From positions 1 to 16,733 of the forward strand of contig JBDLKA010000081.1 of assembly GCA_039714075.1 (NCBI GenBank): a stretch of 16,733 nucleotides of DNA, given 5' to 3'. The notes under the pieces were generated by a model that was not told where the DNA came from, did no database searches, and saw only the letters and a list, made by a program, of their open reading frames with translations. This DNA is from Candidatus Krumholzibacteriota bacterium (GTDB taxonomy: Bacteria > Krumholzibacteriota > Krumholzibacteriia > LZORAL124-64-63). Below are positions 1 through 15,876 of the stretch, in pieces. Position 1 is the stretch's first letter. Every line of letters starts with the position of its first letter. Position numbers and translations under genes: made by a program.

Positions 1-740
1 TCATAGGTGTCGGCGGTAATCGGTTCGGTGGTGAAATCGAAGAAGCTGTCTTCAGCGTCGGGGGTGGTCAGGGTGTCGGGTGAATCGGTGGCCACGACCA
101 TGGCGGCCAGGTCGCTGATGGGGCCCAGGGGCGGGAAGCGTCCGTCCGGCCCGGTTTCCACGCTGGTGACGATCCCCGAGTTTTCAGGAATTAAGTCCGG
201 CTCCATCAGGCGCACCGTCATGCCCGGGATGGGAGAGGTGGTGTCGTCACGGACCAGACCCTCCACCGTGAAAGGCGCTGTCGGACGGTGGCTGATGACC
301 GTTCCGACCGGTCCCAGATCACCGTTTTCGTAGACGGGCCTGACCGCGAAGGATTCGGTGGCGCCCGGTACGATCCCCGCGTCCTCGTGATCGAATTTCC
401 CAAAAAAACCGATTTTGTCGCCGGAGGGGAGGGTTCCCAGCACGGGCAGGGTGCACCAGTTCTCTTCGGTGATGGTCCCGCCGGTTTGGTGAACCCGGAT
501 TTCGAATTTTTCCACGGCCAGGTCGGCGGGATTGGGCAGGGGAGACTGCCAGCTCAGGGTCACCGTGGCGTGAACGATGGGGTCGTCCGTGATGGCCAGG
601 TTTTCCACCGGAGTCAGACCTTCCACCGTGGGAACCGGGCAGCCCGTTGGAGTGGGGTCGTCTTCGGTGCAGCCGCCTGTGATGGTCAGTACGGCAATGA
701 TCAACAGGACAAATAAGTGGGATTTTCTATTCATGTACAT
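1..740 (-). CDS. Lipoprotein, tandem paralog of the 899..2281 metzincin protease (5' part only; runs off the left edge)
   Basis: Not in the ORF track because it has no stop in the window. Manual translation from the ATG at 740 (AGGAGG at 749-754) gives MYMNRKSHLFVLLIIAVLTITGGCTEDDPTPTGCPVPTVEGLTPVENLAITDDP...DSFFDFTTEPITADTY, open to base 1 and colinear with residues ~1-245 of the 899..2281 protein. It has a lipobox-like TGGC. Confidence 0.9.
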   Translation of the reverse strand, partial: MYMNRKSHLFVLLIIAVLTITGGCTEDDPTPTGCPVPTVEGLTPVENLAITDDPIVHATVTLSWQSPLPNPADLAVEKFEIRVHQTGGTITEENWCTLPVLGTLPSGDKIGFFGKFDHEDAGIVPGATESFAVRPVYENGDLGPVGTVISHRPTAPFTVEGLVRDDTTSPIPGMTVRLMEPDLIPENSGIVTSVETGPDGRFPPLGPISDLAAMVVATDSPDTLTTPDAEDSFFDFTTEPITADTY

Positions 741-764
741 GATACAAACCTCCTGATGAGGCCC

Positions 765-794
765 ATTTTACCCCATAAGGCAACCCGTTTTCAA
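765..794 (-). promoter_or_regulatory. Putative sigma70-type promoter for the 1..740 gene
   Basis: The minus strand reads TTGAAA-N18-TAAAAT. The TAAAAT is conserved at the equivalent position upstream of the paralog. Confidence 0.5.
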
Positions 795-835
795 CGTCTT
801 GCCCAAAAAAAGGCCCCGGGTTTCGTGGAGGAATT

Positions 836-858
836 CGCCCGCCTGTGCAGGGCGGGCG
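836..858. terminator. GC-rich hairpin downstream of the 899..2281 gene (possible terminator or mRNA-stabilising stem)
   Basis: cgcccgcc-N7-ggcgggcg forms an 8-bp stem. There is no clear U-tract. Confidence 0.3.
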
Positions 859-898
859 GTTCGCTGGTGGAGTTCGTCTGCGAGGCCATCGGCCAGCC

Positions 899-2281
899 CT
901 ATTGAGGACCCGGCGGCCAGGGCCAGGGCATCGCCTTCTCGAAATTGCTCGTCAAACAGTTCTGGGGCAGGTTCATGATGGTGTGGACGAGCCGTATCTC
1001 ATCCTGGCCCAGGCAGCAGGATCCCGCCGTGCTCATGAGATGGTTCGGGTTCCCGCTGTGGCTGTAGATGCCAAGCGTATGGCCGAATTCATGCAGGATG
1101 ACCCCTGAGGCGTTGTTATGATTGATAATGGGGTCCAACTGGAGCAGGGCTCGCTCGGGAATGACCCACCCATTAAAAGTATGTCCCGCGGGAAGGTCCA
1201 ACATGATCCGTCCGTAGGCTTGGCGCAAATCAAGATACTGGACCTCGATCTTCGCGTCGGCGGGGTCGGTTGTTTCGGTGAACACCGTCAGTCCCAGGGC
1301 CGTGTTCCAGGTTTCCATGGCCTGGCGGCATTCGGCGGCCAGATCGATGGTCCCATCTTCATTCATTCCTTCGGGCACATAGACCCGCAGGTCGTAATCA
1401 TCCCATTTCCTCAACCTGTAGCCGCCACCAGCATAGTTGGTGTAGGTCATCAATTGCACCCAACCGACAAAGTACTCGGCAAGCCAGCCGCCGGGCGGGA
1501 ATTCGTATGTGTAGCGGGTAATGAGGGTGATGGTGATGTCGCCTTCATAGGTGTCGGCGGTGATCGGTTCGGTGGTGAAATCGAAGAAGCTGTCTTCGGC
1601 GTCGGGAGTGGTCAGGGTGTCGGGCGAATCGGTGGCCACCACCATGGCGGCCAGGTCGCTGATGGGACCCAGCGGCGGGAAGCGTCCGTCCGGGCCGGTT
1701 TCCACGCTGGTGACGATGTCCGCCGCCTCGGGAAATTCGAACGGCTCCATCAGGCGCACCGTCATGCCGGGGATCGGGGCGGTGGTGTCGTCGCGGACCA
1801 GGCCTTCGACCGTGAAAGGCGCCGTCGGGCGGTGGCTGACGACCGTTCCGACAGGACCCGGGTCACCGTTTTCGTAGACGGGCCGGACGGCGAAGGATTC
1901 GGTGACGCCCGGCACGATGCCCTTGTCCCGGTGGTCGAACGTCATGAAATACCCGAGCTTGTTTCCGGAAGGCATGGATCCCAGCACGGGCAGGGTGCAC
2001 CAGTTCTCCGCGGTGATGGACCCACCGGATTTGTGCACCCGGACTTCGAACTTTTCCACGGCCAGATCGGCGGGATTGGGCAAGGGCGATTCCCAGGTCA
2101 CCGTCACCCTGGCGTGAAGAAAGGGATCGTCGGTGATCGTCAGGTTCTGGACGGGAGTCAGGTCTTCCACGGTCGGACCGGGGCAGGTCACCGAAACGGG
2201 ATCGTCATCGCCGCAGCCGGCGAGGACAGCCAGGATGATCACAGCCAGAAGGGAAATACCTTTGAGGGAATTAAAGCACAT
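899..2281 (-). CDS. Lipoprotein zinc metalloprotease: FN3-like + carboxypeptidase-regulatory-like + matrixin/M10-like metzincin domain
   Basis: 460 aa with GGAGGT RBS at 2291-2296 and a signal peptide ending in lipobox LAGC. FN3-like pattern (PVQNL..VTVTW..FAVRPVYENG), then TVEGLVRD..PIPGMTV..TGPDGRF. Zinc motif HEFGHTLGIYSH is followed by a Met-turn (NHLMS). Confidence 0.85.
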   Translation of the reverse strand: MCFNSLKGISLLAVIILAVLAGCGDDDPVSVTCPGPTVEDLTPVQNLTITDDPFLHARVTVTWESPLPNPADLAVEKFEVRVHKSGGSITAENWCTLPVLGSMPSGNKLGYFMTFDHRDKGIVPGVTESFAVRPVYENGDPGPVGTVVSHRPTAPFTVEGLVRDDTTAPIPGMTVRLMEPFEFPEAADIVTSVETGPDGRFPPLGPISDLAAMVVATDSPDTLTTPDAEDSFFDFTTEPITADTYEGDITITLITRYTYEFPPGGWLAEYFVGWVQLMTYTNYAGGGYRLRKWDDYDLRVYVPEGMNEDGTIDLAAECRQAMETWNTALGLTVFTETTDPADAKIEVQYLDLRQAYGRIMLDLPAGHTFNGWVIPERALLQLDPIINHNNASGVILHEFGHTLGIYSHSGNPNHLMSTAGSCCLGQDEIRLVHTIMNLPQNCLTSNFEKAMPWPWPPGPQ

Positions 2282-2311
2282 GATATTGAAACCTCCAGAT
2301 GGGGAGGATTC

Positions 2312-2340
2312 ATTTTACACGACGCGCCCCACGGTATCCA
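2312..2340 (-). promoter_or_regulatory. Putative sigma70-type promoter for the 899..2281 gene
   Basis: The minus strand reads TGGATA-N17-TAAAAT, just downstream of the 2351-2389 terminator. Confidence 0.45.
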
Positions 2341-2350
2341 TGGTCTTGTC

Positions 2351-2389
2351 ACAAAAAACGGCCCCGGGGTTCTGTATCCCCGGGGCCGT
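2351..2389 (-). terminator. Intrinsic terminator of the OB-fold/FlgD-tail gene
   Basis: Perfect 12-bp stem acggccccgggg (2358-2369)/ccccggggccgt (2378-2389) with an 8-nt loop, followed on the minus strand by a T-tract. Confidence 0.85.
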
Positions 2390-2462
2390 CATCGCGCTCT
2401 CCGTGTAACCGGTGGTGACACCGGCCAGACGCGATTCCAATCAACTGAACAATTACTTCACT

Positions 2463-4433
2463 CTACTTCACCAGGGTCATCTGCTTGACCTGGACGACCT
2501 CGGCGCCGATGCGCAGGCGGGCGAAGTAGGCGCCGCTGGCCACGGTCTGGCCGGCGTCGTTGGTGCCGTCCCACACGGGACTGTACTCGTTGGCCGGCAG
2601 GCTGCCCTGCACCAGGGTCTTAACCTTCTGGCCGCGGATGTTGTAGATGTTCAGCTGCACCAGGTTCTCCCGGTTGACCACGAATTTGATGGTGGTCTTC
2701 GGGTTGAACGGATTCGGCGCGATGGACTTCAAACCGCCGGCCGCAACGACGTTCGGCAGGTTCTCCACCGGGGTGGCGCCGGTCTGGATGATGAACTCGT
2801 CGGCGATCGGCACGATGCGCCGGGAACCGTACGAGTAGTCCATGTAGCTGGTGACCTTGATGACGTCACCCAGGGTCGGCACGTAGGTCAGCTGGGTCAA
2901 AGGATCGACCACCAGGCTGTCCGCACGGGCGCCGGTATCGGTGATGATGTACTCGCCGAAGCCGAGGGTGTCTTCCACGGCCGCGGGCCAGGTCTGCACC
3001 CAGACGCTTTCCCAGGCTTCACCCATGTTGCCGTTGCCGTCGACGGCGATGCCTTCGTCGTCGGACAGGGTCCGGGTGTCCACGCGGGCGGGAGCCGGCA
3101 GATCGTTACCGAAGCCCAGCAGGTACACGGCGTTGCCGTTGTGGGGGATCATCTCGGTCAGGCCGAAGTACTCGTCGACCTCGCCGCCGATGGCCACCAT
3201 GTCGCCCTGGTAGTATTCGAAGGCCGCGGTGGTCTCGTAGACCAGGATGCCGCTGAACTTGAAGTCTTCCGTGGCGGGATTCACTTCAGGTTCCTGGACG
3301 ATGAACTTGGTGGGCGAACCGACATGGCTGGTGCCTGCGGTCACGACGCCCTGGATGTTCACGAACTGGCCGTTCATGGCCGCGGACTGCGAACTGCTGT
3401 CCGGGTGGGCGTACTGCACGTCCCAGATGGGCGTGAAGCCGACCGCGACGGTCAGGAAGGACGTGGGTGCGGCACCGGGCAGGGTCACGGTCTGGGCGCC
3501 GGTGTCGGTCGCTTCGATGTAGTAGTCGATCTGGGTGCTGCTGTGGCCGCCGGGAATGACGCCGGAGTAGACGTCACCCACGTTGCTCATGGCCACGGAG
3601 CCCCAGGCGCCGGGCGTGACGCCGTCGCTGTCGCGGTAGTACAGCAGGGCGCTGGTAACCCCGATGTCATCAACGATGTTCGCGCTGATGGTGACCGGGT
3701 CGGCGGCTTCGGGCGTCCAGTTGTCGCTGTCGACAGCCGTAATGACGGGCAGTGTGTCGCCACCGGGGTTCTCGACCAGATCGCTCTGGAAGCGGGGCTT
3801 CATCTCGATTTCGCCCAGGTCGGTGGTGATGGGGGAAGTAATGGCGTAAAGGTCGTCGACGGCTACGGCGGTGATGTCGATACCGGTCGTACTATCGATA
3901 TAGACCTTGATCGTGTCACCGATGGCGTCGGAAACGAAGAACTCATTGCCGACGACAGAAGTAACCGTACCAATGACCCGTCCCATCTTGCCGACGTTTT
4001 CATAGGTCGACTTGACAAAGTTGATGGAATAGTCAGTCACGGGAACGACCGGCGTGCCGCCGGTCTCCACGAGCGTGACGGTTCCGGTGAGCTGGATCTG
4101 GTCGCGGTAGGTGCCGACCGTACCGGTGACCTCGATTTCCTGACCAAGGGTGGTGGCAAAGGGGTTACTACCGTGGTAGATGGCGATTCCCTGTCCGGTG
4201 GCATCGACCACGTGGGCGGAACCGCTGCTGAACTGGTGGAGCTCAACGACAGTACCGGTCACAGTTACGATGGCACCCAGCAGATCGGTGCCGCCGCCAT
4301 TGGGGTTGCCGGGCTCGGGAAGACCAGTACCGGCATTGTAGAACTGAATCTCATCAATGGTCTGGGCAGAGGCCGCGCCACTGATCATCACAAGGCACGC
4401 AATAAGCGCCATGCCAAAAAGATGCTTTTTCAT
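2463..4433 (-). CDS. Secreted protein with repeated OB-fold-like modules, an Ig-like domain and a C-terminal FlgD Ig-like/T9SS type A-like sorting tail
   Basis: Start reassigned from 4502 to the ATG at 4433 (AAGGAGG at 4442-4448; Sec signal MKKHLFGMALIACLVMISGAASA), giving 656 aa. OB-like repeats (VTVTGTVV..GQEIEVTGTVGTYRDQIQL; VNIQGVVTA..SGILVY..GDMVAIGGEVDEYFGLTEM). Tail PNPFNPKTTIKF..IYNIRGQKVKTL..WDGTNDAGQTVASGAYF..MTLVK. Confidence 0.85.
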   Translation of the reverse strand: MKKHLFGMALIACLVMISGAASAQTIDEIQFYNAGTGLPEPGNPNGGGTDLLGAIVTVTGTVVELHQFSSGSAHVVDATGQGIAIYHGSNPFATTLGQEIEVTGTVGTYRDQIQLTGTVTLVETGGTPVVPVTDYSINFVKSTYENVGKMGRVIGTVTSVVGNEFFVSDAIGDTIKVYIDSTTGIDITAVAVDDLYAITSPITTDLGEIEMKPRFQSDLVENPGGDTLPVITAVDSDNWTPEAADPVTISANIVDDIGVTSALLYYRDSDGVTPGAWGSVAMSNVGDVYSGVIPGGHSSTQIDYYIEATDTGAQTVTLPGAAPTSFLTVAVGFTPIWDVQYAHPDSSSQSAAMNGQFVNIQGVVTAGTSHVGSPTKFIVQEPEVNPATEDFKFSGILVYETTAAFEYYQGDMVAIGGEVDEYFGLTEMIPHNGNAVYLLGFGNDLPAPARVDTRTLSDDEGIAVDGNGNMGEAWESVWVQTWPAAVEDTLGFGEYIITDTGARADSLVVDPLTQLTYVPTLGDVIKVTSYMDYSYGSRRIVPIADEFIIQTGATPVENLPNVVAAGGLKSIAPNPFNPKTTIKFVVNRENLVQLNIYNIRGQKVKTLVQGSLPANEYSPVWDGTNDAGQTVASGAYFARLRIGAEVVQVKQMTLVK

Positions 4434-4668
4434 CCTTTCGGCCTCCTTAAAATGGGGGTTATTGAGGGCTACTCTCTTGTCACTCGAGACGTGTTTTGTC
4501 AAGCGAATGGACCCGAAGTGGAAAGTGAGCTTATTGCCTACGAGACTGTCTAACCCATTATCCGAACCAATCCCCCCTTATCGGGTAATCCAGCTCGAAT
4601 TCAGTCTCCTCAGCCACCTTGGCGAAAGGGGATGGCATCCATCCCGCTTAAGCCGCCGGTGGCCGTCC

Positions 4669-4697
4669 ATAGTAACACATGGTTTGGAAAATGGTAA
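4669..4697 (-). promoter_or_regulatory. Putative extended -10 promoter for the OB-fold/FlgD-tail gene
   Basis: The minus strand reads TTACCA-N17-TACTAT with TG-N before the -10. This would give a ~230-nt leader. Confidence 0.45.
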
Positions 4698-4724
4698 TGA
4701 TCTTATGTCAATTTTTTATCAAGG

Positions 4725-6332
4725 CTATGATTGAACATCATTTTCAATGATGCATCGTCCTGTCATCTCACCAGGCTGCGGAATTTCCAGCAGATACAGC
4801 AGGGTGGGAGCGATATCCGCTAATCCGAACGTACCATCTTTCAAAATGCCGACTCTGTTTTCGAAGGCCTTGGCCGCGACCACGAAGGGCACGTGGTTGA
4901 GGGAGTGCTGGGTCAGGACCGAGCCGTCGGGACCGATCATTTCATCGCAGTTGCCGTGGTCGGCGGTCACCAGCCAGACCGTGCCCTGTTCCAGGCTCGG
5001 GGGCATGATTTCCGCCAGGAGGCGGTCCAGGGTCCCGAAGGCTTTCACCGCCGCATCGTAGTTGCCCGTATGGCCGACCATGTCGCCGTTGGCGAAATTG
5101 ACGATCACCACGTCGTAGTCGGACCCTTCGCAGGCTTTTTTGACCACGGCGGCCACCTCGGGCGCGCTCATTTCGGGCTGCAGATCGTAGGTGGCGACCT
5201 TGGGCGAGGGGATAAGGGTGCGCTTTTCGTGGGGATAGGGTTCTTCCCGGCCCCCGTTGAAGAAATAGGTGACGTGGGCGTATTTCTCGGTCTCGGCGGT
5301 GCGCAGGTTGCGGATGCCTTGGGCGGCGAACAACTCGGCCAGGCCGTTGCGCGGCGCTTCGGGGGTGAACATCACCGGCAGGTCCAGCGACTGGTCATAA
5401 GGGGTCATGCACAGGTAGTTCACCGCGGGTCGATGGCTCAGCGGGAATCCGTCGAACCCGTCCTGCTTGAAGGCCCAGGTCAGTTCGCGGGCCCGGTCGG
5501 CGCGGAAATTCCAGAAGAAAACACTGTCGCCGTCGCCGATGACGGCGGTGGGCCCGCCGTCCGGTCCGGTGATGATGGTCGGTTCGACGAACTCGTCGGT
5601 GATTCCGCCGGCATAGGAAGCGCCGACGGCCTCCACCGGGTCGGCGGCGGTGACGCCTTTTTCATCAACCCGGCCGTCCACCAGCATGGACCAGGCGCGG
5701 GCCAGGCGGTCCCATCGCTTGTCCCGATCCATGGCCCAATACCGGCCGCAGACCGAGGCGACGGTTCCCGCACCGATGTCGTCCATTTTTTCCACCAGCT
5801 CGCGCACGTAGCCCTGGCCGCTGTTGGGGTCGGTGTCCCGTCCGTCCAGGAAGGCGTGCACAAAGATTTCGGAAATGCCCGCCCGTTTGGCGGCGGCGAT
5901 GATGCCATAGAGATGTTCCGTGTGGGAATGCACGCCACCCGGCGAGACCAGCCCCAGCAGATGGAGGCGGCCCGATCCGGCCCGGGCCCGGTCGAGGAAA
6001 TCCCCCCAGGCGGGCAACCGGTCGAATTCTCCCTCGGCGATGCTTTTGCCGATGCGCACGAGTTCCTGGTTCACGACCCGGCCGGCCCCGATGGTCAGGT
6101 GCCCGACCTCGCTGTTGCCCATCTGCCCGGCGGGAAGTCCGACGGCCAGGCCGCCCGCTTCCAGCGTGGTGAAGGGGTAGCGTTCGAACAGGGAATTGTA
6201 GAAGGCGGGGCTGGCACCGATAACCGCGTTGCCCACTTCGCTGCCGGGGCCGGTACGGTAGCCGACTCCGTCGAGAATGCAGAGCACGACGCGGGGGTGG
6301 CCGGAGCCGGGGCGGGGGGACGAATCGGACAT
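4725..6332 (-). CDS. gpmI: 2,3-bisphosphoglycerate-independent phosphoglycerate mutase
   Basis: 535 aa with hallmark motifs ILDG, GQMGNSEVGH, GGVHSH, DGRD, GRYWAMDRDKRW, NFRADRARE, AETEKYAHVTYFFNGG, NGDMVGHTG and TADHGN. A GAGGAG RBS lies upstream. Confidence 0.98.
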   Translation of the reverse strand: MSDSSPRPGSGHPRVVLCILDGVGYRTGPGSEVGNAVIGASPAFYNSLFERYPFTTLEAGGLAVGLPAGQMGNSEVGHLTIGAGRVVNQELVRIGKSIAEGEFDRLPAWGDFLDRARAGSGRLHLLGLVSPGGVHSHTEHLYGIIAAAKRAGISEIFVHAFLDGRDTDPNSGQGYVRELVEKMDDIGAGTVASVCGRYWAMDRDKRWDRLARAWSMLVDGRVDEKGVTAADPVEAVGASYAGGITDEFVEPTIITGPDGGPTAVIGDGDSVFFWNFRADRARELTWAFKQDGFDGFPLSHRPAVNYLCMTPYDQSLDLPVMFTPEAPRNGLAELFAAQGIRNLRTAETEKYAHVTYFFNGGREEPYPHEKRTLIPSPKVATYDLQPEMSAPEVAAVVKKACEGSDYDVVIVNFANGDMVGHTGNYDAAVKAFGTLDRLLAEIMPPSLEQGTVWLVTADHGNCDEMIGPDGSVLTQHSLNHVPFVVAAKAFENRVGILKDGTFGLADIAPTLLYLLEIPQPGEMTGRCIIENDVQS

Positions 6333-6364
6333 CTAAGGTGCTCCTCGGTCGGTCGGGTGACGGG

Positions 6365-6751
6365 TCATCCCTTTTTCAGGCCTTCGTTCAGGGCGGTAAT
6401 GGGAAGGGCCCACAGCTTTGCTTCGCCCAGGGCCATGAAAACCATTTCGGATAGATAATAAACATCCGCGGCGGGATCAGCTTCCACCCGGGAAATATCT
6501 TCGACCTTCAGCAGGGATCCCGCCTGCAGGACGGCCCGGGTCACCTCGGCTCCCTTGGGCAGGAACTGGGTGACCCGCAGTTTGCCCAACCTGACGATGT
6601 AGGCCGTCGCGGGCTCGGGGTGCAGCAGCTGGTCGGGGGCCAGGAGGATGCGCCGGCCGGCCGGCTTCAGTTTTTCAACCAGCTGGGGCCGCGAGGCGAA
6701 CAGATGGACATCCCGGCGGATGGTCACCGATTGCCGGGGTGTTTCGGTCAT
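6365..6751 (-). CDS. Small stand-alone cyclic-nucleotide-binding (Crp effector domain-like) protein with no HTH
   Basis: Start reassigned to the ATG at 6751, which overlaps the upstream TGA (ATGA), giving 128 aa. AYIVRLGKLRV..GAEVTRAVLQAGSL fits the cNMP beta-barrel pattern Y.I..G.V.V...G.E....L..G, and ALGEAKLWALP fits the final strands. Confidence 0.65.
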   Translation of the reverse strand: MTETPRQSVTIRRDVHLFASRPQLVEKLKPAGRRILLAPDQLLHPEPATAYIVRLGKLRVTQFLPKGAEVTRAVLQAGSLLKVEDISRVEADPAADVYYLSEMVFMALGEAKLWALPITALNEGLKKG

Positions 6752-8316
6752 CGGTCTTCCCTTTCGGCCATGTAGTCCAGGATCTTGCTGGCCGGCAACC
6801 GGCGGGTGCTGGGGCCCAGGCGGATGAAGAATTTTTCCTCGTCGCCGTTGCGGAGAAACACCGGGTCGGGACAGCGGTCGCAATTGATCAGGAAGAGGCG
6901 CCCGGCCGGGGCGGAACGGAAATTCCCGCTGATGTAGCCGGCGAATTCCAGCCCCACGTGCTGTTTGATCAGGTTATCGAAGTGGAGCAGGAATTTGTCG
7001 TCGTTGGCGAACTTGTCGGCTTCCAGACCCAGGACCTCTCCGTCGTCGTCGACGCCGATCAACAGGAAGCCGCCGTCGGTATTCAGATAGGCCACCACGG
7101 ATTTCAGCCAGGCGAGTTCGATTTCCTTGCCGGGCTTGTCCGCGCGCAGGTTCCAGCGCATGGTGGACTTGAATTCGACCTGGGATGTTTCGCCGCCGGC
7201 GATGAGCGCCGCGACCGCTGCTTCATCGGCCGGGGCCCGTCGTTTGCGGCGGGCGAACCGCTGCCACTTGTTGCGGTAGTCGAAGGCGAGCGCGACGACC
7301 GCGACCATCGCCAGGGCCAGCAGTCCCGCGAAAAGCAGGGTCACCTTGCCGGTCACGGTTTCCAGGCGGCGGCTCAGGTCGTCCGCGGGGGCGATCAGGC
7401 CCAGCTGCCCGGGATCGGTGCCCTCCTCCGAGGTGAAAAAGGTGGCCCACCAGGTCTGTCCCGCCTGCCGGAAGCGGAACGGGGTCCGGAAGGGCCGGTC
7501 GCGTTTTCCCCATTCGATCAGGGCCGAACTGATGACCGCGTGTTCCGGCAGTCCGGACACCAGAAGCTCGCCGGTGCTGGCGGTGTCGAGGGCATGACCG
7601 CCCCGGGGCGAAAGCCAGATGATGCGCCCTTCCTCGGTGCGGCGCACCAGGATACCGTTTTCGGTGATCGGAGCGGTGGCCGCAAACCGGTCCAGATCGT
7701 TTTTGAGCAGGCCCAAGGCCACCACGGTGCCGCCTGCGGCCCGGGCGGCGACCAGACCACTGCGCCCATCGCCGGGCAGCGGTCCGTATTCCGACCAGTG
7801 GACCGGGTCGCGGCCCGTTCCCGCCCGGGCCGCGGCATACCATTCCTGATCCCGGCACCCCTGACCCGTGGAGTCCGCCCGGCCCGCCACCCAGCCGTCG
7901 CCGGATCTGACCTGGCGGAACACCGGTCCGGTTGCGGGAATCACGTAGACGGTGGCGGCCTGGCCAGTGGGGTCCACCAGGGGAATCAGCAGGGATCGCA
8001 GCCGGGCGGGGTCGGCGGGATCGAGCAGACCCGCCTCCTGCCAGGTTTCCATGGTGGCCAGATGGTTCCCGAAGGGCGCCAGATAGGCGCGGAACTGGTT
8101 GCGCGTGGCCTCGAGTTTCTCCTGCAGGATCCGGGCGTAGACCGACCGCTGGACCTGAAGCTCGCGGATGGTGACATAACCGGTGGCGGCCACGCCGAGA
8201 ATGATCAGGATGGTGACCGCGGCGACCAGGGGCCGGGCCGCACGGCGTTTGGGCTTCCTGGTGGTGGCTGGTTGTCCGTCAGACAAGGCATCTGTTCCTT
8301 CGTTCGCGATCCGCAT
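6748..8316 (-). CDS. Transmembrane sensor: TM - Cache-like extracytoplasmic domain - TM - Schlafen/AlbA_2 domain
   Basis: 522 aa (alternative TTG start at 8286 with AAGGA 9 nt upstream). TM1 is LVAAVTILIILGVAATGYVTI. Cache-like segment RDQEWYAAA..WSEY..GLVAARA. TM2 is VTLLFAGLLALAMVAVVALAF. AlbA_2 signature GETSQVEFKS..VVAYLNTDGGFLLIGVDDDG..FFIRLGPSTRRL. Confidence 0.85.
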   Translation of the reverse strand: MRIANEGTDALSDGQPATTRKPKRRAARPLVAAVTILIILGVAATGYVTIRELQVQRSVYARILQEKLEATRNQFRAYLAPFGNHLATMETWQEAGLLDPADPARLRSLLIPLVDPTGQAATVYVIPATGPVFRQVRSGDGWVAGRADSTGQGCRDQEWYAAARAGTGRDPVHWSEYGPLPGDGRSGLVAARAAGGTVVALGLLKNDLDRFAATAPITENGILVRRTEEGRIIWLSPRGGHALDTASTGELLVSGLPEHAVISSALIEWGKRDRPFRTPFRFRQAGQTWWATFFTSEEGTDPGQLGLIAPADDLSRRLETVTGKVTLLFAGLLALAMVAVVALAFDYRNKWQRFARRKRRAPADEAAVAALIAGGETSQVEFKSTMRWNLRADKPGKEIELAWLKSVVAYLNTDGGFLLIGVDDDGEVLGLEADKFANDDKFLLHFDNLIKQHVGLEFAGYISGNFRSAPAGRLFLINCDRCPDPVFLRNGDEEKFFIRLGPSTRRLPASKILDYMAEREDR

Positions 8317-8336
8317 AAGATGGTGATTCCGGGACG

Positions 8337-8365
8337 ATACTATTTTCCGGCCCCGCTGGGCACAA
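8337..8365 (-). promoter_or_regulatory. Putative promoter for the sensor-Schlafen unit
   Basis: The minus strand reads TTGTGC-N17-TAGTAT immediately after the 8365-8396 terminator. Confidence 0.35.
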
Positions 8366-8396
8366 AAAAGCCCCGGGTTTCCGCCCGGGGCTTTTT
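8365..8396 (-). terminator. Intrinsic terminator of the S9 peptidase gene (symmetrical, potentially bidirectional)
   Basis: aaaaagccccggg-tttccg-cccggggcttttt, ~20 nt past the stop at 8416. Confidence 0.9.
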
Positions 8397-8415
8397 CTGT
8401 TCCGTGGCAGTCCGG

Positions 8416-10881
8416 TCAGGAACCCTCGACCTCCTTGGCCTCCAGCGTGCGCGGCCCGGCGTTCTTCACGTAGCGGTCCAGCCAGGTGGTGGTTTCCCAG
8501 AGCAGGTGCATCAGCGATTCCCGCGCCCGGTAGCCGTGGCTTTCGTGGGGCAGCATCACCAGCCGCGCCGTGGCGCCGTGGCCTTTCAGGGCGCCGTACA
8601 TGCGCTCGCTCTGCATGGGGTAGGTGCCGGCGTTGTTGTCGGCCTCGCCGTGCACCAGCAGGATCGGTTCGTTGATCTTGTCGGCGTGCATGAAGGGCGA
8701 CATCGCGAAATAGATTTTGGGCACTTCCCACAAAGAGCGCTCTTCGGCCTGGAAACCGAAGGGCGTCAGGGTGCGGTTGTAGGCACCGCTGCGGGGCAGA
8801 CCCAGCCGGAACAGATCGCTGTGGGCCAGCAGGTTGGCGGCCATGAAGGCTCCGTAGCTGTGGCCACCGATGGCGATCCGGTCGCGGTCCGCCACCCCGC
8901 GCTCGACCACCAGGTCGACCGCGGCCTGGGCGCTGGCGACCAGCTGCTCGATGAAGGTGTCGTTGGACTCCTCGTCACCCTCGCCCACGATGGGCATGGT
9001 CGGGTCGTCGAACACGGCGTAACCCTGGGTCAGGTAGAGCATGGGCGATCCCCACCAGACACGCGTGAAGCGGTAGGGGGAATCGGTCACCTGGCCCGCG
9101 TCCTTCTTGCTCTTGAACTCGGTGGGGTAGGCCCACATCAAGGTCGGCAGGGGTCCGTCGCGGTCCTTGTCGTAGCCCGCGGGCAGGTACAGGGTGCCCG
9201 TCAGTGAAACACCATCGGCGCGCTCGTAGGTGATCATTTCCTTGCTGGCGCCGGCCAGCTGGGGGTTGGGGTCGGGAAAGAAGGTCTTCTGCTCCAGCGC
9301 ATCCTTTTTCAGGTCGCGCAGCCAGTAGTTGGGCGGGTCGGTCTGCGATTCGCGCCGGGTCAGGACCTGGCGCCCCTTGACGTTGACCAGTTCCACGGGA
9401 CGCTCGAAAAAGGGCGCCTCGCTGCGGAACAGTCGGGCGGTCTCGCCGGTCGACAGGCTGTAGGCGTCCAGGAAGGGGCGGTCGCCTTCCTCGCTGGCGC
9501 CGTCGCCGATCAGGAAGATGGTGTCGCCGCCGTCGGCGGTCAGGATCACGTTCCGGCCGAATTTCCCATAATGCATGATGGGCTGGCCGGGGTCGGCGTA
9601 CCGGTCCTGCCACGACCGGTCCTGGATCTTGGCGGGGGCAAAACCTCGGTCGTCGGGCTTGACGTGCCAGACCTTCACATTGCGGGTCTTCCACCACCAG
9701 CTGACCACGAAGGCCAGGTCGCCGTCGCCCCAGGTGACGCCGCCGTAGCGCTGGGCCAGGGTCATCATCGGTTCGGGCTCGCCGTTGAAGGGGGCTTTCA
9801 GGGTGAAGACGCGGTCGCGTTCGGCCGCTTCCACACCGCCATCGCCGCCGTCGAGGGCCTCGACCCAGCACAACTCGGCCGCCGCGTCGGCGCGCCAGGT
9901 GAACGAGCGCCGACCGGTGGGCACCGAGCCGAAACTGATCGGCACCTGATCCTGCAGCGGCAGGTCGGCCACCAGGTAGACCAGTTCGCCCTTCAGGTTC
10001 CAGATTTCGACCTTCTTGGGAAAGTCGTCCTCCTGCAGGGAGTAGGAGTAGGGGCGCCGGACCATCTGGACCATGACGTATTTGCCGTCGGGGGAAGGGC
10101 TTACGGACCTGAAAATGGCCGGGTCACCCAGGTTGTCGACCTTTCCTTTCAGGTCCAGACGCACCAGCTGGCTGGTCGTGTAGTAGTCGTAGAGGGATTC
10201 GTCGTAGGGATTCTGCAGCAGATCCTGCAGGGTGCGCGCGGGAGCTTTCTTGCCCAGGTTTTCCTGGATGACCGGTCCGACGGGGGTGGCCGGTTCGGCG
10301 GGAGCGTCGCCGCGTCCGGCGGGAAGGGTCCGGGCCACGAAACTCTTTCCGTCCGCCAACCAGTTGTAGGGCCGGCCGTAGACCCCGTTGAGAGTCATGT
10401 CCTCGGGAGTCACGCGCACGGCCTGACCGTTCTTCAGCTCAGCGTACCAAAGGGTCAGTTTGTCCGCGGAGGTCACCACGAAGGCGATGCGTTTTCCGTC
10501 GGGGGCCCAGCTGACGCTGGTGATGCGGGCTTCGTCAGGCAACCCGGTGACTTCGATCTCCTCGCCGTCGGACAGCTTCCGGAAGGTCAGGCCGCTGAGG
10601 CTGCGCTCACGGCTGGGTCCGTTGCTGCGGGGGTTGATGCGCAACCCCGCCAGGCGCAGTTCGGGCTGGGCCACTTCGGAAATGGGCGGGTACCCGGGAC
10701 GTTCGAGGAGCAGCAGCCATTCGTTGTCGGGGCTGAGGTAGACGCCAGGTGTGGGCGGTGCATCGATGATGTCGGCCAGCACCTGGTCCGGCATCTGGTA
10801 GGCGAGGGCGTCGCCTTCGGCCAGGGCGGGGGTCGTGGCCGACAGCAACAACAGCGGAATCAGAAGGACGGATCGACGCAT
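8416..10881 (-). CDS. Secreted/periplasmic S9 (prolyl oligopeptidase family) serine peptidase, glutamyl-endopeptidase-like
   Basis: 821 aa with a signal peptide and an N-terminal propeller region (WAPDGKR, SPSPDGKY). Catalytic triad motifs are GGHSYGAFM, HGEADNN and PHESHGY. GAGGAG RBS upstream. Confidence 0.92.
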   Translation of the reverse strand: MRRSVLLIPLLLLSATTPALAEGDALAYQMPDQVLADIIDAPPTPGVYLSPDNEWLLLLERPGYPPISEVAQPELRLAGLRINPRSNGPSRERSLSGLTFRKLSDGEEIEVTGLPDEARITSVSWAPDGKRIAFVVTSADKLTLWYAELKNGQAVRVTPEDMTLNGVYGRPYNWLADGKSFVARTLPAGRGDAPAEPATPVGPVIQENLGKKAPARTLQDLLQNPYDESLYDYYTTSQLVRLDLKGKVDNLGDPAIFRSVSPSPDGKYVMVQMVRRPYSYSLQEDDFPKKVEIWNLKGELVYLVADLPLQDQVPISFGSVPTGRRSFTWRADAAAELCWVEALDGGDGGVEAAERDRVFTLKAPFNGEPEPMMTLAQRYGGVTWGDGDLAFVVSWWWKTRNVKVWHVKPDDRGFAPAKIQDRSWQDRYADPGQPIMHYGKFGRNVILTADGGDTIFLIGDGASEEGDRPFLDAYSLSTGETARLFRSEAPFFERPVELVNVKGRQVLTRRESQTDPPNYWLRDLKKDALEQKTFFPDPNPQLAGASKEMITYERADGVSLTGTLYLPAGYDKDRDGPLPTLMWAYPTEFKSKKDAGQVTDSPYRFTRVWWGSPMLYLTQGYAVFDDPTMPIVGEGDEESNDTFIEQLVASAQAAVDLVVERGVADRDRIAIGGHSYGAFMAANLLAHSDLFRLGLPRSGAYNRTLTPFGFQAEERSLWEVPKIYFAMSPFMHADKINEPILLVHGEADNNAGTYPMQSERMYGALKGHGATARLVMLPHESHGYRARESLMHLLWETTTWLDRYVKNAGPRTLEAKEVEGS

Positions 10882-11280
10882 CGCAAAACTCCTCGTTTCA
10901 GGGAAGAGAGTGGGAAGATGTCAGCATAGCCGTTCGCACATACAAAGGGAATCTACGAATCTCCGCACGGATCGTTTCGGGAATGGTTCCGAAATCGGAT
11001 TAATTACCTGATGACCATGCCGGGTTTCTGAACCGGGTTGGGGCAAAACACACCGCGAGGGGTGTCTGGCGACAATATATTTATGGTCAAAACACTGGAA
11101 GTCCTCGATGGAAAACTTAACACGTTGAAAACAAAGGAATTGAGTTGAAAAAGTGCCCCCGGGGACACTTCTACCGATCAAACCTGTTGAAAATAAACGA
11201 GATTCATTTCAAGCCCAGGTATCTCCACTCCAGGTATATTCACTTGCTGATATCCGGAAAGATTACGAATACCAATTTAA

Positions 11281-11313
11281 ATATTGCGGATCAATATCCC
11301 ACAATGTTAGTAT
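11281..11313 (+). promoter_or_regulatory. Putative promoter of the oxidase operon with an overlapping inverted repeat
   Basis: TTGCGG (11284-11289)-N18-TAGTAT (11308-11313) with a TG-N extension. ATATTG-N5-CAATAT (11281-11297) overlaps the -35. Confidence 0.4.
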
Positions 11314-11510
11314 GAGTTGAAATTCAATTGAATCCCATTCTCACTTGAATGGTTCTACGGTTTCGCGAACCGAAAACCGCGAATTTCCAACGAATCCAGA
11401 AATCTCCGGCAAAACCCGCCGGACCGGTTCGGCCCCAGGGGGCCCTCCGCCACGGTGTGTGGCGGACGAATGACGACAAGGCGAGCGAGGAAAGGACCGG
11501 TGTGGAAGTG

Positions 11511-12323
11511 ATGATGAAGATGAAGACGACGGCCAAAACAACGGTGACGGCGGCGGTGCTGGCTGTCCTTTTCGCCGGCCCGGCAGCCGCCCAGCTCAAC
11601 GAGGACGCGGTCGAATTCACCGAACACCTGGGCGAGTACGTTCCCGGCGACATCACCCTGCGTGATGAAACCGGGCAGCCGGTCGTTCTGTCCGAGTTCG
11701 TGGACCGGCCGACCATCGTGTCGATGGTCTATTTCGAATGTCCGGGCATCTGCACGCCGCTTCTGAACGAGGTGGCGGACATTCTGGGCAAGAGCAACCT
11801 CGATCCCGACAAGCAGCCGTTCCAGTTGGTGAGTATCAGCTTCGAGCCCAAGGACACGCCCGAGATGGCGCGGCTGAAGCAGGAAAACTACCTGAATCTG
11901 GTCGGCCGCGAGCTGCCCAAGGACACCTGGCGGTTTTTCACCGCCGACCAGGAAAACATCGACAAGATGACCACCGCCCTCGGTTTCGCCTACAAGCGCG
12001 CGGGTAAGGAATACACGCATCCGGGCGGCCTGGTGATCCTGTCGCCGGACCGGAAGATCGTGCGCTATCTGTACGGTCTGCAGTTTCTGCCTTTCGATTT
12101 CCAGATGGGCGTCTACGAAGCGTCCCAGGGCAAGGTGCGGCCCACCACCGCCCGGCTGCTGAACTTCTGCTTCAGCTACGACCCGGAGGGGCGCACCTAC
12201 GTCTTCAATCTGGCGCGGGTGATCGGCACCGTGATGCTGATCTCCATCGTCTTCTTCATTGGATTCCTCGTTTTCACCACCCGCGGCAAACGCGGGAAGG
12301 AGGCTTTGCCCGATGGCCGATAG
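11511..12323 (+). CDS. sco: SCO1/SenC family copper chaperone
   Basis: Signal peptide (..AAVLAVLFAGPAAA), CPGIC (CxxxC), conserved His in YTHPGG and a C-terminal TM helix. The start is uncertain between GTG 11502, GTG 11508 and ATG 11511-11520; the 11349 start in the ORF track is unlikely. Confidence 0.92.
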   Translation: MMKMKTTAKTTVTAAVLAVLFAGPAAAQLNEDAVEFTEHLGEYVPGDITLRDETGQPVVLSEFVDRPTIVSMVYFECPGICTPLLNEVADILGKSNLDPDKQPFQLVSISFEPKDTPEMARLKQENYLNLVGRELPKDTWRFFTADQENIDKMTTALGFAYKRAGKEYTHPGGLVILSPDRKIVRYLYGLQFLPFDFQMGVYEASQGKVRPTTARLLNFCFSYDPEGRTYVFNLARVIGTVMLISIVFFIGFLVFTTRGKRGKEALPDGR

Positions 12324-13971
12324 CACCGCTACCGCCACGGGGGCTTACGGCACCACCGGAAGCTACCTGGACACACCCGCAGGCGGCGGCCTGAAGAGCT
12401 GGCTGACCACCGTGGACCACAAGAAGATCGGCCTGATGTACGCCGCGGCCATGTTCACCTTTTTTCTGGTGGGCATTTCGCTGGGTTTCCTGATCCGCCT
12501 CGAACTACTGGAACCGGGCACCCAGTTCGTCAGCGCCCGGGCCTACAACTCGATCTTCACCCTGCACGGCGTGATCATGATCTTCCTGTTCATCGTGCCC
12601 GGGATTCCGGCCATTCTGGGCAACTTCGTTTTGCCGCTGCAACTGGGAGCCGACGACGTGGCCATGCCCCGGCTGAACCTGATGAGCTGGTACGTGTACA
12701 TGATCGGGGCGGTGATGGCCCTGCTCTCGCTGGTGACCGGCGGCGGGGTTGCGGACACGGGCTGGACCTTCTACGCGCCGTATTCGCTGAACACCAACAC
12801 CAACGTATCGCTGGCGGTGCTGGCGGCGTTCGTCCTGGGCTTCAGCTCCATCATGACGGGCATGAATTTCATCACCACCATCCACCGGCTGCGCGCCCCG
12901 GGCATGGGCTTTTTCCGGATGCCCCTGTTCTGCTGGGGACTGTACGCCACCAGCTGGATCCAGGTCATCGCCACGCCGGTGGTCGGCATCACCCTGCTGC
13001 TGGTGTTCATGGAGCGCACCCTGGGCATCGGGTTCTTCGATCCCGCCCGCGGCGGCGACCCCATCCTGTACCAGCACCTGTTCTGGATCTACTCGCACCC
13101 GGTGGTGTACGTGATGATCCTGCCCGCGATGGGCATCATCTCCGAGATCCTGCCCGCGTTCGCCCGGCGGACGATCTTCGGCTACAGGGCCATCGCCATT
13201 TCGTCCATGGCCATCGCGGTCGTGGGCTACCTGGTCTGGGGCCATCACATGTACACCGCCGGGATGAGCGACACCGCGCGGTGGATCTTCAGCATCCTGA
13301 CCTTCTTCGTGGCCATTCCCACGGGGGTGAAGGTCTTCAACTGGATCGCCACCCTGTACCGGGGTTCGATCGAGATCCGGGTGCCGCTGTTGTACGCGTG
13401 CGGCTGGATCTTCCTGTTTTCCATCGGCGGTTTGACCGGGCTGGCCAACGGCGCCCTGTCGACGGACATCCACCTGCACGACACCGCCTACATCGTGGGT
13501 CACTTCCACTACACGATGTTCGGCGGTGCGGCCATCGGCATGTTCGCCGGGCTGCACTTCTGGTGGCCCAAGATCTGGGGCCGCATGTACAACGAGAAGG
13601 TTGCGACCTGGGCCTGGATCCTGATCATGGTCGGCTTCAACCTGACGTATTTTTCGATGCTGATCGTGGGCATCATGGGCATGCCGCGGCGCTACCAGGA
13701 CTACCTGCCCCAGTTCAGCGACCTGAACATGTTGTCGACCGTAGGTTCCTGGATCCTGGTGGCCGGCCTGCTGACGATGATCTTCAACCTGGTGAGAGCC
13801 ATCCGCAACGGAAGTCCCGCGCCCGCCAATCCCTGGGGCGCCACCACCCTCGAGTGGCAGACCACCTCGCCGCCGCCGCTGTTGAACTTCGCGTCGCCGC
13901 CGACGGTGGACACCGGTCCCTACGATTTCACGGAGATCCTCAGGCAGAATAATGTCCAGGAGGGAACGTAA
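12313..13971 (+). CDS. coxA: Cytochrome c oxidase subunit I (A2-type heme-copper oxidase)
   Basis: ATG at 12313 with a GAAGGAGG RBS; 552 aa. Motifs TVDHKKIG, TLHG, GWTFYAP, FWIYSHPVVY, WGHHM, PTGVK, GHFHY and GMPRRY. Confidence 0.97.
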   Translation: MADSTATATGAYGTTGSYLDTPAGGGLKSWLTTVDHKKIGLMYAAAMFTFFLVGISLGFLIRLELLEPGTQFVSARAYNSIFTLHGVIMIFLFIVPGIPAILGNFVLPLQLGADDVAMPRLNLMSWYVYMIGAVMALLSLVTGGGVADTGWTFYAPYSLNTNTNVSLAVLAAFVLGFSSIMTGMNFITTIHRLRAPGMGFFRMPLFCWGLYATSWIQVIATPVVGITLLLVFMERTLGIGFFDPARGGDPILYQHLFWIYSHPVVYVMILPAMGIISEILPAFARRTIFGYRAIAISSMAIAVVGYLVWGHHMYTAGMSDTARWIFSILTFFVAIPTGVKVFNWIATLYRGSIEIRVPLLYACGWIFLFSIGGLTGLANGALSTDIHLHDTAYIVGHFHYTMFGGAAIGMFAGLHFWWPKIWGRMYNEKVATWAWILIMVGFNLTYFSMLIVGIMGMPRRYQDYLPQFSDLNMLSTVGSWILVAGLLTMIFNLVRAIRNGSPAPANPWGATTLEWQTTSPPPLLNFASPPTVDTGPYDFTEILRQNNVQEGT

Positions 13972-14621
13972 TGAGTTCCGAATCAGCTCACGCCATTGAT
14001 CAGGCAATTGACCAGGCGCCGGGCCACGTGGTCCACGCCGACCCTGAAGCCGGCAAAACCGGCATGTGGCTGTTCCTGTTCACGGAACTGCTGCTGTTCG
14101 GCGGGCTGTTCCTGATCTACGGGGTCTACCGCTCCATGCACGAAGGCGCCTTCCACCACGCGGCCGCCGAACTGAACGTGGCCATGGGCGTGACCAACAC
14201 CATCGTGCTTCTGACCAGCAGCCTGACCATGGTCATGGCGGTCAGTTCTTTGCAGCGGAACCAGGCCAAGCGCAGCCTGGGCTTTTTGACCGCCACCCTG
14301 GCGTTGTCGGCGACCTTCCTGGTGATCAAGTACTTCGAGTGGAGCGCCAAACATCACCACGGCATCTTTCCGGGCATGGATCACCTGCACGAGCTGCCGC
14401 ACGGGGAAGGGCTGTTCTTCAACCTGTATTTCATGATGACCGGACTGCACGGCGTCCATGTGGTCATCGGCATGATCGTGATGCTGGTCGTGCTGGCCAA
14501 GATCCGTTCCGGCGCCGTGCACGGGGGCAGCTACGGCATCCTCGAGTACACCGGGCTCTACTGGCATCTGGTGGATCTGATCTGGATCTTTTTGCTGCCG
14601 CTGTTCTACCTGACCACCTAA
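13971..14621 (+). CDS. coxC: Cytochrome c oxidase subunit III
   Basis: 216 aa with a TAATG overlap with coxA. Motifs GMWLFLFTE, NTIVLLTSS, TGLHGVHV and YWHLVDLIWIF. Confidence 0.95.
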   Translation: MSSESAHAIDQAIDQAPGHVVHADPEAGKTGMWLFLFTELLLFGGLFLIYGVYRSMHEGAFHHAAAELNVAMGVTNTIVLLTSSLTMVMAVSSLQRNQAKRSLGFLTATLALSATFLVIKYFEWSAKHHHGIFPGMDHLHELPHGEGLFFNLYFMMTGLHGVHVVIGMIVMLVVLAKIRSGAVHGGSYGILEYTGLYWHLVDLIWIFLLPLFYLTT

Positions 14622-14645
14622 CCGGGGTTCGAGAGAGGATTTGAG

Positions 14646-14945
14646 ATGAGCAACTCCAACGCAGCCGCGGCCAAACCCCATGTCCTGCCGGACGGCCTCT
14701 TTGTCATGGTCTGGGTCGCATTGTTGGTCCTGACCGCCATTACGGTGGGCGGGTCGGTTTTCTTTCCGGGAAAAATCGGGATCCTGGTGGCCATGATCGT
14801 CACGCCGATCAAGGCTGCCCTTATTCTCATGTACTTCATGCACCTGAAGTACGAGAAGGCGGGGTTCGTGGCCATGTTCCTGGTGGCGGTGGGGATCCTG
14901 AGCATCTTCATCGGATTGACATTCTTCGATTACCTTCTTCGATAA
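14646..14945 (+). CDS. coxD: Cytochrome c oxidase subunit IV (prokaryotic CtaF/CoxD)
   Basis: 99 aa with three TM helices and KAALILMYFMHLKYE. Confidence 0.9.
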   Translation: MSNSNAAAAKPHVLPDGLFVMVWVALLVLTAITVGGSVFFPGKIGILVAMIVTPIKAALILMYFMHLKYEKAGFVAMFLVAVGILSIFIGLTFFDYLLR

Positions 14946-14954
14946 GGGCTGAAA

Positions 14955-15848: not shown

Positions 15849-15876
15849 AAGGGACTTCGAACCCGAGAGCGGCGCG

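Follow-up and report, generated by a model that had tools for sequence, protein, structure and literature searches.

The window analysed here is a 16,733-nucleotide stretch of DNA from a Candidatus Krumholzibacteriota bacterium (GenBank assembly GCA_039714075.1, contig JBDLKA010000081.1, positions 1 to 16,733). At the locus of interest, the gene order is an S9 peptidase gene, a hairpin with a U-tract, a receptor gene, an open reading frame (ORF) for a protein of 128 amino acids (aa), and iPGM. The receptor gene (6748..8316, minus strand) is the subject of this study. According to the ORF list, the translation and the Pfam result, its product is a membrane receptor of 522 aa, counted from the ATG at 8316, in which a predicted double-Cache (dCache) sensor is joined through a transmembrane (TM) helix to a Schlafen/AlbA_2 domain.

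The receptor gene and its topology

The ORF has 522 codons and a stop. Whether translation starts at ATG 8316 or at TTG 8286 is uncertain: the TTG (8284-8286, codon 11) lies 9 nt 3' of GAAGGA, and the database copy of the protein has 512 aa, matching this second start. Thus, the residue numbers used below may be 10 too high (a shift of -10). A plus-strand ORF (6739-9207, 822 aa) overlaps the gene; it gave no family match, and we regard it as an antisense artefact that reflects the high G+C content of the genome, about 65%.

A Kyte-Doolittle scan found exactly two hydrophobic segments in the receptor, within residues 25-51 and 320-348. The first contains TM1 (residues ~29-49; 8170..8232, minus strand), which follows a basic N-terminal cytoplasmic tail and is supported by hydropathy, charge counts and a modelled helix. 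The second contains TM2 (residues ~325-345; 7282..7344, minus strand), which is supported by hydropathy and lies inside one continuous modelled helix running from residue 311 to 357. Residues 1-28, before TM1, hold 7 Lys or Arg, and residues 347-362, after TM2, hold 8 Lys or Arg and 0 acidic residues. Because both cytoplasmic flanks are positively charged, the topology is N-in, with an external domain of ~275 aa and a cytoplasmic C-terminus. TM2 is followed by a basic juxtamembrane tether (residues 347-364; 7225..7278, minus strand) with the linker sequence RNKWQRFARRKRR, in which the translation, Pfam and the model show neither a HAMP domain nor another transmitter. Indeed, PF04326 (SLFN_AlbA_2) is the sole Pfam domain of the receptor; no HAMP, kinase, cyclase or MCP domain was found in the Pfam scan of the query, and a scan with NCBIfam added nothing. 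Matches to HemY_N and PRK10920 over the TM and linker region were rejected as being at chance level.

These results agree with an earlier interpretation made from the letters of the DNA only, hereafter the sequence-only reading. It had placed the ORF at exactly these coordinates, with TM1 at 8170-8230 and TM2 at 7285-7345, in accordance with the Kyte-Doolittle segments; it had given the external domain ~270 aa, close to the ~275 aa between the two segments; and it had described RNKWQRFARRKRR, present as printed, as the only connection from TM2 to the AlbA_2 domain, with no HAMP, kinase, cyclase or MCP output, of which Pfam shows none.

A single-lobe Schlafen-type domain in the cytoplasm

Residues 365-522 (6751..7224, minus strand) form a single-lobe, nuclease-type Schlafen/AlbA_2 domain, identified by Pfam, by the model, by Foldseek and by profile comparison with the PDB. 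PF04326 matches residues 376-507 with an E value of 4.8e-18 and a score of 66.2 bits (cut-off, 25.3); the match takes in positions 1-117 of the 118 in the profile. A separate model, limited to residues 353-522, reached a predicted local distance difference test score (pLDDT) of 93.5 and a predicted template modelling score of 0.89. It gave 34 Foldseek matches at E<=1e-3, the best of which were DIP2311, the AlbA_2 domain of SAMD9, and SLFN12, 14, 11, 13 and 5. The SAMD9 domain is in the PDB in complex with DNA as well as under the description 'tRNase domain' (9o0d). A profile built from 64 cytoplasmic fragments of the family matched SLFN12 and the SLFN13 chain 5yd0 at ~2e-6 to 4e-6.

The residues expected for catalysis are conserved throughout the family. 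Residue counts here and below refer to those 225 of the 261 collected family proteins that have 440 aa or more. The motif E376-x4-E381-x-K383 (ETSQVEFK, residues 376-383; 7168..7191, minus strand) and D424 (7045..7047, minus strand), the second Asp of GVDD and the third residue of the predicted catalytic triad, are each invariant in 225/225, and R387, N412, D440 and R499 are likewise present in every member. In the profile alignment, E376, E381 and K383 fall on the Glu-x4-Glu-x-Lys of 5yd0, and D424 falls on its second GVDD Asp. In rat SLFN13, mutation of E205, E210 or D248 is reported to abolish cleavage (PMC5862951); the spacing of the two Glu residues agrees with that of E205 and E210, the second Glu and the Asp are 38 residues apart in 5yd0, as in rat SLFN13, and by this spacing the Asp of 5yd0 was equated with D248. 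The tRNase motif reported for the prokaryotic Schlafens (pSlfns), Ex4(E/D)xK (PMC13056530), also fits the receptor.

The sequence-only reading had anticipated both the ETSQVEFK motif, whose three residues all members keep, and a PF04326 match at about residues 365-520. It had chosen D423 as the conserved acidic residue of GVDD; this has to be corrected, since D423 is kept in just 62 of the 225 members and D424 in all. Its concern that the acidic residues might vary among orthologs is answered by the full conservation of E376, E381 and D424.

No two-lobe Schlafen core was found in the chain, which has a single PF04326 stretch within a 158-aa domain; the query-normalised TM-scores to SLFN chains in Foldseek are 0.42-0.47, with root-mean-square deviations of at least 9. 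By sequence and model, the receptor domain resembles the catalytic C-lobe, and the protein does not belong to the eukaryotic Schlafen family. With a single lobe, any clamp must arise by oligomerisation. Taken together, the alignments and models indicate a catalytically intact Schlafen-type domain, which is a predicted nuclease.

The external domain and its ligand pocket

The external region (residues ~50-323; 7348..8169, minus strand) is assigned as a double-Cache (PDC) sensor by fold match and family profile. An AlphaFold2 model of the receptor, built on the family alignment, has a mean pLDDT of 87.2, and Foldseek matched it to the dCache domains of Tlp3 (1.6e-8), TlpC, Mlp24, McpH and others. 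These matches cover ~270 columns, with E values of ~1e-8 to 1e-6 and target-normalised TM-scores of 0.6-0.72, the highest being that of Mlp24. A profile of 44 family members, compared with the PDB, found the dCache structure 7w0w at an E value of 2.5e-12 and PctA at 4.6e-10. Moreover, PF02743 (dCache_1) and/or PF22673 are present in 26/120 listed full-length relatives, at ~30% identity to the query. The model and the profile thus place a double-Cache/PDC fold between the two TM helices. The sequence-only reading had proposed a Cache-like sensor and had named the lack of any Cache/PDC fold as the result that would speak against it; the fold is present. Pfam gives no Cache match for the query itself, so that the Cache identity is drawn from the fold match and the family profile.

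Among the closest relatives, the domain is still conserved: W159 is invariant in the clade, several other Trp residues are nearly so, and the identity of the external domain among the clade loci scored is 44-75%. In 10/10 clade loci with values for both parts, the Schlafen part is more conserved than the Cache part (80 vs 73% at one locus, 68 vs 44% at another), which we read as a sensor under selection.

The pocket was compared with the amino-acid motif described for dCache_1 sensors, Y121, R126, W128, Y144 and D173 in PctA numbering (PMC8915833), whose positions were mapped onto the family profile through the profile-to-PDB alignment. At these positions the query has Q152, Q157, W159, G178 and G202; Q157 stands at the position of R126, G202 at that of D173, and W159 retains W128. 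For this comparison, the family was divided into 65 clade members (at least 45% identity to the query) and 160 distant members (below 45%). The complete Y-R-W-Y-D motif is present in 64/160 distant members (~40%; e.g. P0080-P0121 and others), with 8 distant rows that have a gap at the R126 column scored as lacking it, and R126 and D173 occur together in 85/160 distant and 0/65 clade members. Many distant relatives thus look like amino-acid sensors. In the window protein, Gln and Gly replace the key Arg and Asp, only the Trp is kept, and the alignment shows a deletion of ~30 aa relative to the dCache_1-bearing relatives. To judge from these changes, the window receptor almost certainly senses something other than amino acids, or nothing.

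Coupling of sensor and nuclease, and the extent of the family

The distance between the membrane and the predicted active site is short and well conserved. TM2 stands ahead of the nuclease domain in 224/225 relatives, and the catalytic Glu follows the end of TM2 at a median distance of 27 residues (interquartile range 25-28; 225 relatives). In the model, one helix extends from the external domain across TM2, and ~7 non-helical residues (358-364) lie between it and the helix with which the nuclease domain begins. No longer Cache architecture with an additional output domain was found; the 14 longer matches are TPR or methyltransferase fusions. The closest Schlafen domains outside the Cache family (P0381-P0394) are in fact 1069-aa TPR-repeat fusions at 44-46% identity, followed by fusions to Eco57I/N6-MTase-type restriction methyltransferases of ~1320-1420 aa at 35-39% identity.

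A search of the representatives of 1.84 billion protein clusters gave 5170 matches at E<=1e-3, of which 2962 reach <=1e-10 and 403 reach <=1e-30. Among the best 150 cluster matches, most have 480-560 aa; a minority are shorter and are probably partial sequences. At the level of genomes, with one genome per species, at least 529 stretches encode a relative, and the analyses of loci and neighbourhoods reported here cover the best 80 of these. The closest among the listed loci are from Krumholzibacteriia, with up to 77% identity. The best 80 also include Desulfobacterota (Desulfocapsa, Desulfosarcina, Desulfopila), Gammaproteobacteria, with Methylococcales and Chromatiales, and members of Verrucomicrobiota, Calditrichia, Aminicenantes, Latescibacterota, Planctomycetota and Bacteroidales. 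Relatives are carried by cultured strains of Desulfosarcina, Desulfopila and Rhabdochromatium. At one locus of Planctomycetota (L057), only the TM2-Schlafen part matches the query, and the N-terminal sensor may differ.

A small gene coupled to the receptor gene in one clade

Directly downstream of the receptor gene lies the small ORF (6365..6751, minus strand), which encodes a 128-aa protein with a cNMP-binding-like beta-barrel and whose ATG overlaps the TGA of the receptor gene (ATGA). A homologue is found directly downstream in 12/13 clade loci that have downstream sequence, with a start/stop overlap of 1 or 4 nt in 11/12 of the clade loci that carry the small ORF, as well as in the window. 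At the remaining locus (L005), a convergent gene replaces it, and one further sequence (L016) ends within the receptor gene. In the 66 loci outside the clade, a search with a hidden Markov model found 0 homologues. Since it is absent there and in L005, the small ORF is not essential to the mechanism of the family.

The small-ORF family has 188 detectable members, some of which are named CRP-like or cyclic-nucleotide-binding at their source. PF00027 (cNMP_binding) is matched at E<=0.01 by 33/35 sampled relatives; the query itself scores 16.6 bits, below the gathering score of 27.5. The profile of the family matches the cNMP domain of PDB 2pqq weakly (1.3e-3), and, as we read the alignment, it shows no residue equivalent to the phosphate-binding Arg. 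We therefore call the small protein cNMP-binding-like only, and we regard nucleotide binding as doubtful. In an atlas look-up of the small ORF, the clusters returned had no names except for one cNMP cluster at 0.94, which is a weak lead. In this clade, the small protein is probably a stoichiometric partner of the receptor, either a modulator or an inhibitor.

Genomic neighbourhood

A G+C-rich hairpin followed by a U-tract (8362..8400, minus strand), recognised by eye and by folding, lies 3' of the S9 peptidase gene. Folding of the surrounding 66 nt (8350-8415) gives a minimum free energy of -35.4 kcal/mol and a z-score of -3.3; a scan for consensus terminators did not list the hairpin. Such a structure after the peptidase gene implies a separate transcript that begins with the receptor gene.

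The order peptidase, receptor, small ORF and iPGM is kept in Krumholzibacteriia relatives down to ~50% identity. In loci of the Desulfocapsa type, genes for MlaE, ABC, MlaD and an auxiliary lipoprotein together with NhaA lie upstream, and a xylose-isomerase-like TIM-barrel gene lies downstream. All-against-all clustering of the 2786 ORFs of the 80 loci revealed no neighbour gene common to the whole family, only such synteny within single lineages. Within the clade, the identity of the receptor falls in parallel with that of the flanking genes: relative to the window, the peptidase, receptor and iPGM are 89, 77 and 80% identical at the closest locus (L001), and 74, 54 and 70% at a more distant one (L015). 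Since the receptor and the flanking genes diverge in step, with the Cache part always the more divergent, the pattern is that of vertical inheritance, and the receptor gene looks like a chromosomal gene with a faster-evolving sensor, not a mobile defence island.

The other genes of the window are noted for completeness. On the plus strand (11349-16731), genes for SCO1/SenC, COX1, COX3 and a COX2-cytochrome c fusion are followed by a gene of the UbiA family (heme O synthase-like), which continues past the end of the window, and a 99-aa ORF (14646-14945) lies between COX3 and COX2. Between the divergent S9 peptidase and SCO1 genes, the G+C fraction drops to ~0.54-0.56 (10900-11350), and this gap is probably a shared promoter region. 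At the other end (3-4502, minus strand), three consecutive genes encode probable secreted proteins: one of them has a carboxypeptidase-regulatory-like domain, another is M10 (matrixin)-like, and a third, of 679 aa, carries an FlgD-Ig domain and a C-terminal sorting domain for type IX secretion. Elsewhere in the family, a ~600-aa protein with partial matches to a PLD-like (DrmC) model and to the MkoB model adjoins the receptor gene in one locus of Verrucomicrobiota (L044, 4165-5955, plus strand) and in one of Planctomycetota (L057, 7638-9449, plus strand).

Proposed mechanism and alternatives

We propose that the window protein is a one-component receptor, in which ligand-driven movement of TM2 in a dimer or oligomer rearranges the Schlafen domains, switches the cleavage of tRNA or other RNA and thereby adjusts translation; we put the probability of this proposal at roughly 55%. 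In such a mechanism, the periplasmic double-Cache domain would sense a small molecule. The signal would pass along a single helix from the sensor via TM2 into the cytoplasm, where, after ~7 unstructured residues, the tether would keep the single-lobe pSlfn domain close against the cytoplasmic side of the membrane. The output would most likely be metal-dependent endonucleolytic cleavage of tRNA or other structured RNA. The movement of TM2 would change how the Schlafen domains of the dimer or oligomer face each other, thus turning cleavage on or off, and this realignment may be analogous to those of cA4-activated Cash and of the SLFN11 dimer. The receptor would then be a physiological regulator of translation that responds to an external chemical cue, and would not serve against phages.

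The precedents for a pSlfn gated by a sensor come from two published studies. Perez Taboada et al. (Nat Microbiol 2026, PMC13056530) catalogued 5,930 pSlfns in 55 domain compositions and proved anti-phage function for an Ig-like-pSlfn (RorSlfn5) and a DUF262-pSlfn (EcoSlfn7). In the Cash system, binding of cA4 to the dimeric sensor moves the Schlafen domains to an 'open' state that binds tRNA (PMC13462974). RorSlfn5 and Cash both count in favour of our proposal. The architecture itself is in the first catalogue: its Supplementary Table 2 defines a group pSlfn12, composed of 'Cache.Cache.pSlfn', 'Cache.pSlfn' and 'Cache.Cache.Cache.pSlfn', with 25 members annotated by structural homology. The sequence-only reading had held that no characterised protein has this architecture. 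This stands in so far as none was found in the literature searched; as the composition is already catalogued, the claim of novelty must be lowered. One of our relatives, L052 (Desulfosarcina widdelii, NZ_AP021875.1, 3536045-3537613), is filed in the same table as 'unannotated_fusion_cluster228', so that the count of 25 undercounts the architecture. The main text of PMC13056530 contains 0 mentions of Cache or membranes, and the Schlafen survey of PMC13462974 does not mention Cache. The word 'cache' in the Tiamat preprint is a computing term, not the domain.

Several points weigh against our proposal. Full-text literature searches turned up no work on a Schlafen linked to Cache or to a membrane, and the literature searched holds no enzymatic, ligand-binding or genetic data on any family member. 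The external domain of the query matches no Pfam Cache family at E<=1, the complete amino-acid motif is present in 0/65 clade members, and, with the deletion of ~30 aa in addition, the pocket of the window receptor could be vestigial. The small ORF is, among the loci analysed, confined to the clade and is missing even there from L005. Finally, there is the association of pSlfns with defence: in PMC13056530, 69.6% of the pSlfn genes have defence genes nearby, 9/25 pSlfn12 members have a defence gene within 10 kb, and a strong PADLOC match to SoFic lies ~5 kb from our relative L052.

This last point leads to the first alternative, which we regard as unlikely: that the receptor is an abortive-infection pSlfn, whose Cache domain detects a sign of phage at the envelope or in the periplasm and whose nuclease then cuts tRNA. 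The pSlfns tested so far do defend by tRNA cleavage, with their fused domains acting as sensors (PMC13056530). The faster evolution of the Cache part resembles that reported for the pSlfn5 sensor, and the closest non-Cache Schlafen domains include the fusions to restriction-modification-type methyltransferases. The local evidence points the other way. PADLOC, at E<=1e-5, gave 0 matches for the receptor protein itself and 0/12 for the window genes; apart from SoFic, 14 diverse loci (128 ORFs) showed only scattered partial matches to generic domains (PLD-like, sigma-54 activator, methyltransferase-like and TatD-like). The housekeeping synteny is stable, and the reported defence score of pSlfn12, 0.36, is below the candidate threshold of 0.5 (PMC13056530). 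Furthermore, the full amino-acid motif in 64/160 distant relatives points to a nutrient rather than to a phage signal. Because of the conserved housekeeping neighbourhoods and the apparent vertical inheritance, we read the receptor as a non-immune regulator.

The second alternative concerns the window's own clade and is, in our view, quite improbable. The Cache domain might be a vestigial anchor, and the two overlapping genes might form a pair resembling a toxin and an antitoxin, in which the small cNMP-like protein restrains the RNase until an intracellular signal arrives. The lost motif, the shortened sensor, the conserved overlap of the two genes and the probable membership of the small protein in the ligand-binding cNMP superfamily are all consistent with this. 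On the other hand, the external domain is still conserved in the clade, down to the invariant W159 and the near-invariant Trp residues; the receptor occurs at L005 without the small ORF; and the apparent lack of a phosphate-binding Arg makes nucleotide binding doubtful. The last alternative, that AlbA_2 is a non-catalytic nucleic-acid binder serving as a membrane-tethered, ToxR/CadC-like regulator or as a device that localises RNA, has in its favour the fold matches to SAMD9 AlbA_2 with DNA and to DIP2311-type regulator-like proteins, one database name ('putative DNA binding domain-containing protein') and the reported mammalian Schlafens that lack catalytic residues (PMC13462974), but we think it very unlikely, as four catalytic-motif residues invariant in 225/225 members are hard to explain without catalysis and the same SAMD9 domain is also in the PDB as a tRNase.

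Beyond the proposed receptor mechanism, a broader and more tentative possibility, which we would not yet favour, is that the family as a whole provides a direct link from chemoreception to translation. An extracellular nutrient, read by a dCache domain of the chemoreceptor type, would gate the cutting of tRNA at the membrane, neither a phosphorelay nor a second messenger would take part, and this would represent a non-immune, ancestral-type use of Schlafens that the Krumholzibacteriia have rewired. In the ~40% of distant relatives with the full PctA motif, amino acids would be the signal, and the Krumholzibacteriia version would combine a new ligand with an added cNMP-like partner protein.

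Schlafen nucleases are currently seen, in humans and in bacteria, as antiviral effectors triggered by intracellular cues. If our proposal is true, Schlafens would have a physiological, non-immune role, and RNA cleavage would be a new class of output for bacterial transmembrane signalling, in place of phosphorylation, methylation or cyclic nucleotides. The relatives with the amino-acid motif offer a ligand that can be tested immediately. The family is also larger than the 25 published members, given the filing of L052 in the pSlfn table.

Comparison with known systems

The nearest catalogued group is pSlfn12, which the receptor resembles in having one or more Cache modules followed by pSlfn; this match is one of domain composition. 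The published gene sizes of ~1.46-1.61 kb (487-536 aa) and the low association with defence (0.36) also agree. As reported in PMC13056530, pSlfn12 is catalogued in 25 genomes with no experiment attached. The window clade differs in that it lacks the amino-acid motif and has gained a partner gene.

RorSlfn5 and EcoSlfn7 share with the receptor a single-lobe Ex4(E/D)xK nuclease fused directly to a sensor, and in both cases the sensor is more variable than the nuclease. According to the same study, these two are soluble cytoplasmic proteins that sense a phage protein and reside in defence islands, and RorSlfn5 is a hexamer; the window receptor, in contrast, crosses the membrane twice, carries an extracytoplasmic sensor of the small-molecule type and lies in a housekeeping context. 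By analogy, CbCash (Schlafen-Csx15, from a type III CRISPR system, PMC13462974) would be the best mechanistic template for ligand gating, because a ligand-bound dimeric sensor repositions its Schlafen domains and exposes the active site. CbCash differs from the receptor in that it responds to the intracellular second messenger cA4, is activated by a transition from dodecamer to filament, and is not bound to the membrane.

The mammalian SLFN11/12/13/14 have in common with the receptor domain the fold and the catalytic Glu-Glu-Asp with Lys, but form a two-lobe pseudo-dimer within one chain and carry linker and helicase domains in addition. On the sensor side, PctA, Tlp3, Mlp24 and TlpC likewise have a double-PDC fold between two TM helices; the receptor is set apart from them by its nuclease-domain output in place of HAMP, MCP, kinase or cyclase modules, and from PctA-type sensors by the lack of equivalents of R126 and D173 and by the deletion of ~30 aa. 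RNase Y and RNase E illustrate that an enzyme tethered to the inner membrane can cleave RNA in the cytoplasm; in their catalytic folds they bear no relation to the receptor, and they have no extracytoplasmic sensor.

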